Origin: Escherichia phage BAU.Micro_ELP-22
Sequence record: OR699282.2
Direction: 5' to 3' (one strand)
DNA: 64,000 bases
A program made the position numbers and the translations under genes. Under the pieces are notes generated by a model. The model saw only the letters and a program-made list of their open reading frames with translations, was not told where the DNA came from and made no database searches. Positions 35,625 to 36,441 of this stretch are shown here, one piece after another. How positions within the stretch are numbered: the stretch's first letter is position 1; every line of letters starts with the position of its first letter.

Positions 35625-35652
35625 TTGACTAAATAGTTCAGTACTGTATAAT
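35625..35652 (+). promoter_or_regulatory. Early promoter, conserved-spacer family
   Basis: TTGACT-aaatagttcagtactg-TATAAT (16 nt spacer). Confidence 0.7.
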
Positions 35653-35683
35653 GTTTGTATCTTAACTTATATGGCAACTTGAT

Positions 35684-36037
35684 ATGTTTAGTGAATATGA
35701 AGAAGCAATAAAACGCAACCTTGAAGATTACAACTTCCAATTTTATATTTGGGATGAACTGATGAGATTGTGTTTACAGTGGATGGAAAATGGAGAAACT
35801 CCTGACCAACGAACTGTTATATTAAACATTTTGTTACATAAAGATCTTAGTTCAATTAATGTTGAAGTTTCTACTTATGTAGAAGAAGATTATAATCCCT
35901 ATATTTCATATACTTCACCTGTACCAAAGACAGAAGAAGAATATTTTCAAATGAGTACTGTACAAGAACCATTGTTCACTTATGAGTTCTATAAGTACTT
36001 GGTTGGTGAATTCAAAAAAATGCGAATTAATTCTTGA
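35684..36037 (+). CDS. C-terminal FFQ-x-S motif family member
   Basis: 117 aa; TEEEYFQMSTVQE. Confidence 0.55.
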   Translation: MFSEYEEAIKRNLEDYNFQFYIWDELMRLCLQWMENGETPDQRTVILNILLHKDLSSINVEVSTYVEEDYNPYISYTSPVPKTEEEYFQMSTVQEPLFTYEFYKYLVGEFKKMRINS

Positions 36038-36061
36038 CTAAATAATTCAGTACTGTATAAT
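36034..36061 (+). promoter_or_regulatory. Early promoter, conserved-spacer family
   Basis: TTGACT-aaataattcagtactg-TATAAT; drives tRNA-Gly. Confidence 0.7.
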
Positions 36062-36070
36062 GCTTTCAAA

Positions 36071-36146
36071 GCGGTAATCGTATAAAGGCTATTACCTCGG
36101 TTTTCCAAACCGATGATGTGGGTTCGATGTCCCACTTACCGCTCCA
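36071..36146 (+). tRNA. tRNA-Gly (anticodon TCC), CCA encoded
   Basis: Acceptor gcggtaa/ttaccgc, anticodon arm tcggt-tttccaa-accga, T-arm gtggg...cccac with 8-nt loop; resembles T4 tRNA-Gly as recalled. Confidence 0.8.
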
Positions 36147-36167
36147 ATTAATAATTCAAAGGTGAAT

Positions 36168-36344
36168 ATGATGCTATCACACAAAACAGCAACTGTTGAA
36201 AATATTGAATCATTATCTGCACAAGAATTGGTTGACAAAATTAAAGAAGTATGTGATAATAATGGCATTGATATGAATGATACATTTATTAGTGTAGGTT
36301 ATGGTGATTTAGAAATTCAATCTAAAACACTATATTATACTTGA
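36168..36344 (+). CDS. Small hypothetical protein
   Basis: 58 aa from ATG with AAGGTGA RBS. Confidence 0.45.
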   Translation: MMLSHKTATVENIESLSAQELVDKIKEVCDNNGIDMNDTFISVGYGDLEIQSKTLYYT

Positions 36345-36362
36345 CTAAATAGTTCAGTACCG
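36341..36362 (+). repeat. Degenerate copy of conserved-spacer promoter (has -35 and spacer, lacks -10)
   Basis: TTGACTaaatagttcagtacc followed by GAAGGAG rather than TATAAT. Confidence 0.5.
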
Positions 36363-36412
36363 AAGGAGATTAATATGTTTAAAGATGAACGTCCAGATTT
36401 GTAAAAAAGTAC

Positions 36413-36441
36413 TTGACTAAATAGTTCAGTACTGATATAAT
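36413..36441 (+). promoter_or_regulatory. Early promoter, conserved-spacer family
   Basis: TTGACT-aaatagttcagtactga-TATAAT. Confidence 0.7.

Follow-up and report, generated by a model that had tools for sequence, protein, structure and literature searches.

A putative promoter cassette family with a conserved spacer in the tRNA region of an Asteriusvirus jumbo coliphage

INTRODUCTION

Why do several promoters in one small region of a phage genome share not only their hexamers but also the spacer between them? The question is raised by a stretch of 64,000 nucleotides from Escherichia phage BAU.Micro_ELP-22 (OR699282.2), called the window here, in which an earlier note had described early promoters with one conserved spacer at 35625, 36034, and 36413 and a copy without a -10 hexamer at 36341. 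The source is a jumbo coliphage of the genus Asteriusvirus (121Q/PBECO4-like), and the locus lies in its region of tRNA genes and small open reading frames (ORFs). We consider it moderately probable that a single account joins the observations: the copies would belong to a portable promoter cassette of host type, alike through descent and recombination, and would act as recombination points for the gain and loss of cassettes, with the copy at 36341 left behind as a junction scar. The CAGTACTG part of the spacer would be inherited and kept by whatever selects the palindrome AGTACT throughout the genome.

RESULTS

Four copies of the promoter sequence lie within 800 bp

Direct reading and a pattern search agreed on four copies of TTGACTAAATA[G/A]TTCAGTAC within 800 bp (at 35625, 36034, 36341, and 36413), so that the near-exact sharing described earlier is borne out. 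Measured against the 20-mer TTGACTAAATAGTTCAGTAC, the copy at 36034 has one mismatch (G to A) and the other three have none. At up to 3 mismatches, this 20-mer gave 5 matches against 0.04 expected, and 5 was reached in 0 of 100 shuffles; the fifth match, on the minus strand with 3 mismatches, is unrelated to the cassette family. The -10 hexamer TATAAT lies 3' of three copies (at 35647, 36056, and 36436) and is missing at 36341. As read, the copies are TTGACTAAATAGTTCAGTACTG-TATAAT (35625), TTGACTAAATAATTCAGTACTG-TATAAT (36034), TTGACTAAATAGTTCAGTACCGAAGGAG... (36341), and TTGACTAAATAGTTCAGTACTGA-TATAAT (36413). The earlier note gave all of them a 16-nt spacer, which is correct for 35625 and 36034, but the spacer at 36413 is 17 nt long (CAGTACTG-A-TATAAT). 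The spacer has two parts: a 5' half, AAATAGTT, which is local, and a 3' half, CAGTACTG, which adjoins the -10 at positions -20 to -13. The likeness is confined to the promoter, running from TTGACT to the -10 or just past it between unlike flanks. Upstream A-runs are present at copies 1 and 4, like the AT-rich tract in the definition of the PeSL promoter elements of T4-like phages.

The reading of these sequences as promoters was upheld. Copies 1, 2, and 4 (P1, P2, and P4) match the sigma-70 hexamers at 11 of 12 positions with spacers of 16, 16, and 17 nt, are co-oriented with the genes, and lie directly before an ORF (P1, ORF at 35684), tRNA-Gly (P2, with the tRNA at 36071 beginning 9 nt on and a 60-aa ORF behind it), and a conserved RNA (P4, RNA at 36445). 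P4 is placed exactly where the cross-genus conservation of that RNA begins and is followed by about 350 nt without a credible ORF. The three copies are thus predicted host sigma-70 promoters, and their early timing is likewise a prediction, made from the consensus and from published work on relatives: in PA5oct, sigma-70-like motifs were found at start sites mapped by RNA sequencing (PMC7318152), and an early region has been predicted in CBB (PMC5259590). No Pfam family was found for any of six neighboring ORFs, and the 58- to 60-aa ORF had no DNA match in the phage collection.

Copy 3 fails as a sigma-70 promoter because it has no -10. Direct reading found no usable -10 at 16 to 19 nt; the copy continues into CCGAAGGAGATTAATATG instead, and AAGGAG follows. 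It had been said to feed a GGAG-ATG micro-ORF. A Shine-Dalgarno sequence and a 9-codon ORF do follow it, but the copy cannot itself supply transcripts.

The first 12 nt of the cassette (TTGACTAAATAG/A; 35625-35636, 36034-36045, 36341-36352, and 36413-36424) contain TAG, TGA, and TAA, one per forward frame, so that any reading frame entering the cassette is closed at its 5' end. The TGA codons at which the 117-aa and 60-aa ORFs end lie in the -35 hexamers of copies 2 and 3.

Other members of the family were found at 37180, 54261, and 58223 (Table 1). The sites at 54261 and 58223 had been described as sharing the 3' half of the spacer together with TATAAT. This is so for 54261 (CAGTACTG-TATAAT), but 58223 reads TAGTACTG-TATAAT, with T in place of C. 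With the abundance of the motif allowed for, AGTACTG abutting the -10 at these two further promoters has a Poisson P of ~0.003. The 54261 member has TCAGTACTGTATAATGTTT[A/G]TATC in common with copy 1, and an ortholog of it is present in the metagenomic locus L128. In the IMG/VR database, the exact family sequence was found in 121Q only, and there only in the same region. We also considered a LexA box, since TACTGTATAA resembles the left half-site, but direct reading found no ACAG 8 nt on.

The spacer is conserved beyond that of other promoters in the window

To compare the family with other promoters, we used a stringent definition, TTGAC-N16-18-TAnnnT, over the whole window, which gave 37 sites. 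The plus strand carries 35 of them against 3.2 +/- 1.8 in first-order Markov simulations, and the minus strand carries 2 against 2.6 +/- 1.4. The excess on the plus strand argues that these are real promoters, about 1 per 1.8 kb. A generic promoter scan at 9/12 found no excess (49 against 47.9 in shuffles); only the stringent definition parts signal from noise.

Over the 16 nt before the -10, the 37 sites are identical at a mean of 4.6 of 16 positions (sd 2.0), and no spacer column exceeds 0.3 bit. By comparison, the spacers at 35625 and 36034 are identical at 15 of 16 positions, and each is identical to that at 54261 at 12 of 16. A repeat finder run blind on the whole window returned the cassette family as its first and fourth direct-repeat families (D1 and D4). 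Spacer conservation in the family is therefore greater than in the other promoters of the window, and the observation stands. Conservation among orthologs was uninformative as a test of selection on the spacer, as the whole local region is 98 to 99% identical among Asteriusvirus genomes.

Relatives differ by indels and hybrid copies at the cassettes

A megablast search with 35000-37500 returned 57 phage records at 80 to 99% identity, all of them 310- to 390-kb jumbo myoviruses of the 121Q/PBECO4 group and its relatives, with Escherichia, Salmonella, and Klebsiella as hosts. The relatives differ by several indels and duplications over 35000-37700. P1 is 100% identical in 7 relatives (196/196 positions). 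The segment 36056-36336, with tRNA-Gly and the ORF behind it, is missing in E9.1, 121Q, JP4, PBECO4, and SP27; BLAST homology to these five ends at 36055 and resumes at 36337. Thus, 36056-36336 is an indel with both breakpoints inside the 20-bp repeats at 36034 and 36341. In the same five relatives, copy 2 keeps its own upstream flank, and its -35 and spacer are joined straight to the leader of the micro-ORF (...TTCAGTACtgaggatattaatATGtttaaagatgaa). The site at 36341 therefore looks like a recombination junction and not like a dedicated expression signal. Two types of junction were found: the 121Q type has A at repeat position 12, and the CMSTMSU type has G and TACC as in copy 3 of the window. 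That the CMSTMSU hybrid differs implies a second, independent crossover point.

Further perfect copies lie before tRNA-Ser genes in relatives (L001 at 4864, L002 at 4972, and L003 at 5726). The site orthologous to 37180-37213 exists in three versions: TTGACTAAATAGTTCAGTAC in E9.1, TTGACTGTAGTATTCAGTAC in A4, and TGGACAGTAGTATTAAGTAT in the window. The differences are clustered in an 8-nt patch, as would be expected of gene conversion from another copy. In the Klebsiella phage RaK2 (Alcyoneusvirus), an extra 42-bp family promoter forms a clean insertion between the two conserved RNA modules that follow P4. As a cause of the shared spacer, the earlier note had offered recent duplication or a bound factor. 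For the 5' half of the spacer, duplication is supported by the recombining cassettes, the indel bounded by copies 2 and 3, and the conversion-like patch at the tRNA-Ser copy.

The 3' half of the spacer recurs in other lineages and contains an iterated palindrome

In the tRNA region of RaK2, copies read GTGTTGAACAAAAAGTTCAGTACTGATATAAT, and aaGTGTTGAACAAAAAGTTCAGTACTGATATAAT is present in 4 to 5 copies. The RaK2 genome paper does not analyze promoters. Scanned for CAGTACTG-N0-1-TATAAT, IMG/VR gave 11 matches within a single 11-kb stretch of RaK2 and further ones in large contigs from metagenomes; in an unbiased listing of that stretch, 8 of 10 plus-strand promoters had the motif. From 32 non-identical examples with a 16-nt spacer, we obtained the consensus a-AGTAC-TTG(A/C)nn-N8-(T)CAGTACTG-TATAAT-GTTT, in which GTAC abuts the -35 in 15 of the 32 (counted from the listing). 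The 5' half of the spacer is unlike between genomes and common within a genome, a pattern that fits concerted evolution of one cassette family.

The core of CAGTACTG is itself frequent. AGTACT occurs 152 times in the 64 kb against 21.5 expected from composition (7.1-fold), is the most enriched palindromic hexamer, and is among the top three hexamers overall, with CAGTAC and GTACTG. Its 18 one-mismatch neighbors stand at 0.4- to 2.1-fold, and CAGTACTG occurs 29 times against 0.6 expected (~50-fold). Much of this enrichment is in coding sequence, with AGTACT counts by reading frame of 59/25/42. The 126 ORFs contain 127 AGTACT, against 30.0 +/- 4.5 after synonymous-codon shuffling (maximum of 45 in 200 shuffles), an approximately 4-fold excess, and 19 CAGTACTG against 1.5 +/- 1.2. 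Ser-Thr is encoded as AGT-ACT in 63 of 106 cases (15.6 expected), and the pair itself is found 106 times against 69. The base before the hexamer is C or T in 70% of cases and G in 9%; the site is written here as (Y)AGTACT(R).

The same enrichment, at 7- to 30-fold, was found in every RaK2-like locus examined, and in 25 kb of Mimasvirus CBB it is 9-fold for AGTACT and 37-fold for CAGTACTG; the loci with an iterated palindrome include L010, L030, L023, L068, L104, and L141. It was not seen in small T4-like and T5-like control loci. Among seven relatives, 89% of aligned AGTACT hexamers are kept, against 77% of hexamers in general; each comparison agrees, the comparisons being phylogenetically non-independent. 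Pairs of AGTACT 18 to 24 bp apart showed no convincing excess (5 against 2.4 expected). Our literature search found no paper describing AGTACT iteration in these phages. The SlmA-binding site GTRAGYRCTYAC shares the AGTACT core, and we considered it as a candidate. SlmA reads half-sites with G1, T2, purine3, A4, and G5 around that core (PMC3020112); the window contains 0 matches to GTRAGYRCTYAC, and the flank preference is the opposite.

A bound factor is one reading of these data. YAGTACTR would be the site of a lineage-specific DNA-binding protein, of the phage or possibly of the host; two sites 20 bp apart, touching the -35 and the -10, would clamp the promoters off (or on) after the early phase, and the spacer would be conserved through purifying selection on the operator. 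The thousands of other genomic sites would reflect a second role of the same protein in compaction, protection, or marking. The recurrence of CAGTACTG at the same position in promoters of another genus and the genome-wide enrichment both fit, although shared descent of one cassette family would explain the promoter recurrence as well. An operator would also suit a palindrome held at one promoter position by several lineages with unlike 5' spacer halves, the frequent AGTAC at the -35, the preference for the exact hexamer, the persistence of the excess under synonymous shuffling with its bias in Ser-Thr codons, and site conservation above background in a trait found across the clade and its hosts. 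Two proteins encoded in the window, a sigma-70-family protein (50913-51878) and a C5 cytosine methyltransferase (24246-25103), are candidate readers or modifiers; we found no link of either to AGTACT. The binding protein, however, is purely hypothetical. Most promoters of the window and those published for CBB do without the motif, decayed variants persist in the metagenomic relative L068, and JP4 tolerates TAGTACTG in copy 4. Paired sites are not clearly in excess, and the site is not that of SlmA. We think an operator rather unlikely.

Alternatively, the AGTACT promoters could form the regulon of the phage's own sigma-70-family factor, with regions 3 and 4 reading the -20 to -13 element and the AGTAC at the -35. 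The 321-aa product of 50913-51878 matches Pfam Sigma70_r3 and r4, sigma-70 regions 2.3 to 4 in PDB, and phrog_351, and the conserved element is placed where, as is well established for the extended -10 region, DNA is contacted by sigma region 3. However, the hexamers match the host sigma-70 consensus at 11 to 12 of 12 positions, so no special factor is needed, and a different motif (TGAAACG -35 with TATA -10) has been proposed as the divergent promoter class of relatives (PMC5259590). The palindrome, moreover, is mostly inside genes with no promoter context. We consider a sigma factor regulon very improbable. Within the protein, regions 2.3 to 4 align to RpoD/SigA, and the WW of region 2.3 is replaced by SS.

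A recurring coding motif, TEE(E/S)xF(Q/M)xST(V/I), is present in at least 6 ORFs (22192, 23454, 25892, 35933, 42270, and 62138); its Ser-Thr is AGTACT in 5 of the 6 (AGCATT at 62138), and it may be a shared short peptide motif or reflect paralogy. The 286-aa methyltransferase has DNMT3 catalytic domains as its best full-length PDB matches, and its gene holds two CAGTACTG sites (24664 and 24722). Six palindromic hexamers, each expected about 5 times, are wholly absent from the window (CCTAGG, CCATGG, CAGCTG, AGGCCT, AGCGCT, and ACCGGT), which suggests restriction-site avoidance beside the AGTACT excess. A gene for an HNH endonuclease lies at 52967-53752.

Some members of the family fold into a hairpin

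Copy 4 is predicted to fold into a hairpin of -9.6 kcal/mol (z -2.44). Together with four copies from the RaK2 tRNA region, it has a 10-bp stem of -7.0 to -9.6 kcal/mol (z -2.4 to -3.4), with AGTAC and TTGAC (the -35) as the 5' arm and the spacer as the 3' arm. The pairing survives in three sequence variants; a compensatory change from GACU/AGUU to GACA/UGUU is seen in the RaK2 copies.

A second type of element in the window combines a terminator with a promoter, for example AAGGTTGACTTCGGTCAGCCTTTTTTGT-TATAAT. Such composites are found at 59996, 63238, 63421, and 31772, with -12 to -18 kcal/mol and z of -3.9 to -5.2; in them, the TTGAC of the -35 is the 5' arm of a strong hairpin, the spacer is the U-run, and TATAAT follows. 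RaK2 (L084) and CBB have the element too; for CBB, the publication lists it as a terminator and nothing else (Torf39). Stem-loops that take in the -35 are thus native to the lineage, yet this architecture explains only the P4-type members.

These foldings raise the question of whether the spacer is conserved for pairing with the -35 and the upstream AGTAC, as in a strict PeSL. The hairpin would then terminate, attenuate, or process incoming transcripts, insulating each tRNA or RNA gene. The P4-type copies, with their compensated stem, and the composites, one of them conserved in CBB, are what such a role predicts. However, copies 1, 2, and 3 and the members at 54261 and 58223 have the same spacer and fold no better than shuffles (z of -0.09 to +2.1; -0.09 for copy 1 and 0.07 for copy 3), and two promoters of the RaK2 L030 class fold weakly (z of 0.18 and -1.44). 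The P4 hairpin has no U-run after it and was not flagged in the terminator scan. Pairing thus fails as a general explanation, and we judge the strict stem-loop reading unlikely.

P4 precedes two conserved RNA modules in a plastic tRNA region

The RNA after copy 4 is about 95% identical between the window and RaK2, apart from indels of 1 and 2 nt, and its fold is better than that of shuffled sequences (z -2.9). It consists of two modules. Module A, its first ~190 nt, is 85 to 92% identical overall in other phages: 91 to 92% in T4-like Proteus and Morganella phages (Proteus PM2 and Pm5461; Morganella Mm5) and 86% in T5-like Proteus phages (Proteus phage 2), with a partial match in Aeromonas T4-like phages. 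It is always found in an unannotated gap between tRNA genes, and its consensus structure has 49 pairs, 7 with compensatory changes. Module B occurs without module A in phage JNE01. Thus spread, the modules look like mobile stable-RNA genes of phage tRNA clusters. A search of Rfam gave nothing at the gathering threshold and, at E<=10, only a chance match to HIV-1 SL3; a likeness of GAGGTGAAAGTCC to the RNase P CR-I motif is therefore unsupported.

Seven tRNA genes lie at 33985-39408 (by ARAGORN, with which Rfam concurs), and 126 crude ORFs, nearly all on the plus strand, make up 85% of the window. Just after tRNA-Ser, 35181-35259 is a borderline tRNA that scores 29.3 bits in Rfam against a cutoff of 29 and is missed by ARAGORN; relatives annotate it as tRNA-Leu (121Q) or tRNA-Arg (JP4). 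Five small paralogous ORFs of the region (33523, 33781, 34300, 35288, and 35449) all start with ATGACACATGAAGAATGGATG (MTHEEWM...); at a place with two copies in the window, 121Q has three in tandem. Before tRNA-Thr, the intergenic-looking stretch 38740-39330 has no convincing plus-strand ORF, and relatives annotate three small minus-strand ORFs there. This stretch has two 12-bp palindromes, TTCAGTACTGAA (38762 and 38883), a perfect TTGACA-16-TATAAT at 39015, and a CCTAGACG motif that is also in module A; it possibly contains further RNA genes. The left part of the window (185-15666) codes for proteins of DNA metabolism, with topoisomerase II subunits (185-3252), a clamp-loader-like AAA+ protein (7620-8570), an NT5C nucleotidase (8573-9196), TelA (12666-13799), and an Rv2179c-like exoribonuclease (13882-14568).

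Table 1. Members of the promoter family and associated elements, with positions in the window
Feature	Position	Strand	Description
Copy 1 (P1)	35625..35652	+	TTGACT, 16-nt spacer AAATAGTTCAGTACTG, TATAAT; 5' of 117-aa ORF
117-aa ORFan after P1	35684..36037	+	Annotated coding sequence in relatives; TGA stop (36035-36037) within the -35 of copy 2
Copy 2 (P2)	36034..36061	+	TTGACT, 16-nt spacer AAATAATTCAGTACTG, TATAAT; -10 ends 9 nt before tRNA-Gly
Cassette-specific segment	36056..36336	+	P2 -10, tRNA-Gly(UCC) (36071-36146), 58-60-aa ORF (36162/36168-36344)
Copy 3 (partial)	36341..36360	+	-35 and 14 nt of spacer, no -10; TTGACT gives the 60-aa ORF its TGA
9-codon micro-ORF MFKDERPDL* (predicted)	36375..36404	+	AAGGAG 7 nt upstream; identical in all six relatives with the junction
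Copy 4 (P4)	36408..36441	+	AGTAC, TTGACT, 17-nt spacer AAATAGTTCAGTACTGA, TATAAT; TGn extended -10
Imperfect inverted repeat of copy 4	36408-36433	+	AGTACTTGACT/AGTTCAGTACT, takes in the -35
Module A, conserved noncoding RNA (predicted P4 transcript)	36445..36650	+	Cross-phage conservation
Module B, second conserved noncoding RNA	36655..36795	+	Ends in hairpin and T8
Decayed family member	37180..37213	+	AGTAC-TGGACA-GTAGTATTAAGTATTGA-TATAAT before tRNA-Ser(GCU); repeat family D10
Distant family member	54261..54288	+	TTGACA-TAAGATATCAGTACTG-TATAAT, then stem-loop in the 5' untranslated region and ORF at 54382; D1
Looser family member	58223..58250	+	TTGACA-AACGTTCGTAGTACTG-TATAAT before ORF at 58298; D1, 68%
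Terminator/promoter composites	51880, 59987-60025, 63229-63265, 63412-63450, 31758-31790		
Terminator-like element	51880		After the sigma-70-family gene

DISCUSSION

How, then, might the copies have come to share a spacer? Under the portable-cassette account, which we prefer, they would be copies of one unit that is transcribed by sigma-70 RNA polymerase of the host and would owe their near identity to the descent of one copy from another. Each complete copy would start a short transcription unit: P1 that of the 117-aa ORFan, P2 that of tRNA-Gly and the 60-aa ORF, and P4 that of the two conserved stable RNAs. Homologous recombination and gene conversion between copies would keep them alike, and the same recombination would insert, delete, and swap the flanked cassettes, as described for PeSL elements. 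The copy at 36341 would be such a junction and no promoter. By closing three frames and giving two upstream ORFs their stops, TTGACTAAATAG would mark a gene boundary in either role. The CAGTACTG element, and often AGTAC just before the -35, would be inherited traits of a family that Alcyoneusvirus (RaK2) and relatives not yet cultured have as well. Positive selection on AGTACT as DNA, acting across the lineage, would have kept them; any function of the palindrome is conjectural. In P4-type copies, the two AGTACT motifs with TTGAC/GTTCA would form a hairpin that may attenuate read-through from upstream. The operator, stem-loop, and sigma factor readings are not mutually exclusive with this account.

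Several observations weigh against parts of it. Only one indel is cleanly bounded by two copies; in phage A4, P2 and tRNA-Gly are present, 36148-36822 is missing, and the breakpoints are outside the copies. The repeats, at 28 to 40 bp, are shorter than the ~100 bp of PeSLs and fall below the length in the PeSL definition, and P1 and P2 have no stem-loop. In close relatives, the promoters are 95 to 100% identical and their neighbors 98 to 99%; as the promoters are no better kept, purifying selection on the spacer is not demonstrated among close relatives. The CAGTACTG element is present in 5 of the 37 promoters of the window and missing from 32, which counts against an operator as well. In L068, some members with a decayed element (CAGTACAG and CAATGATG) are still promoter-like, and the published promoters of the more distant CBB are without the motif, so the motif is not required for promoter function in the clade. 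Finally, promoter and early status both rest on the consensus and on relatives.

A broader proposal is that (Y)AGTACT(R) is the recognition site of a putative factor conserved in the RaK2-like jumbo phages (Asteriusvirus, Alcyoneusvirus, Mimasvirus, and uncultured relatives). Selection would have made it an iterated sequence, biasing Ser-Thr coding on the way, and two positioned sites, at the -35 and the -10, would control a class of host-type early promoters. We regard this proposal as doubtful; if it were true, jumbo phages would have a new global system for marking DNA and for early shutoff. The cassette account, for its part, would extend the modular shuffling by promoter cassettes known from T4-like phages to the RaK2-like jumbo phages and would show tRNA and stable-RNA genes moving as promoter-led cassettes. 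A 28-bp unit that stops translation in three frames and, by prediction, restarts transcription could serve as an engineering part. The iterated palindrome, clade-wide and with fixed promoter positions, raises a testable question: what reads AGTACT?

Known systems offer partial parallels. The phi29 proteins p6 and p4 and TF1 of SPO1 have many genomic sites together with positioned sites over early promoters, as the operator reading would have it; this is an analogy only. HIP1 (GCGATCGC) of cyanobacteria is likewise a short palindrome that is many-fold overrepresented genome-wide, within genes and in all frames, and conserved above background. We know of no settled function for HIP1. It differs from (Y)AGTACT(R) in sequence, and the phage palindrome is found in phage genomes and also stands at fixed promoter positions.

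Compared with canonical E. coli sigma-70 and extended -10 promoters, the cassettes have the same TTGACT/TTGACA and TATAAT, a 16- to 17-nt spacer, and, in copy 4, TGnTATAAT. They differ in that the spacer sequence of sigma-70 promoters is normally not conserved and in that the TG of the 16-nt copies is one position out of register for an extended -10. The early promoters of T4 have a GTTTAC-type -35 and no conserved palindrome in the spacer (the Wilkens and Rueger consensus; the Miller et al. 2003 review). Like the cassettes, they are promoters for the host RNA polymerase that are stronger than typical host ones, with A-rich upstream sequence, and form dense arrays in early regions and before the tRNA cluster. 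The cassette family is nearer to the canonical E. coli consensus than to these.

The closest parallel is the PeSL, and the mechanism we propose is for the most part an ordinary one: a promoter cassette of PeSL type, in a lineage new for it, with an unusual embedded palindrome that is iterated across the clade. In T4-like phages, ORFans are flanked by strong sigma-70 promoters that have stem-loops, and where one phage has a cassette, a close relative has a single hybrid element (Arbiol et al. 2010, PMC2839356; Comeau et al. 2014, PMC4122927). The present family shares with PeSLs the repeated, strong promoters of sigma-70 consensus with an A-rich tract upstream, the clustering in a plastic region of small ORFans and tRNAs, the replacement of a cassette by a single hybrid element in close relatives (one clear case here), and, in part of the copies, a stem-loop that lies over the -35 and -10 or between them. 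It differs in its lineage (RaK2-like jumbo phages, not Straboviridae). A further trait of PeSLs is the formation of mini-circles, cut out by recombination between the flanking copies. Half of the copies are without a stem-loop, and the repeats are short. Besides ORFans, the cassettes here also head tRNA and stable-RNA genes, and their spacer holds a specific palindrome that is also iterated throughout the genome.

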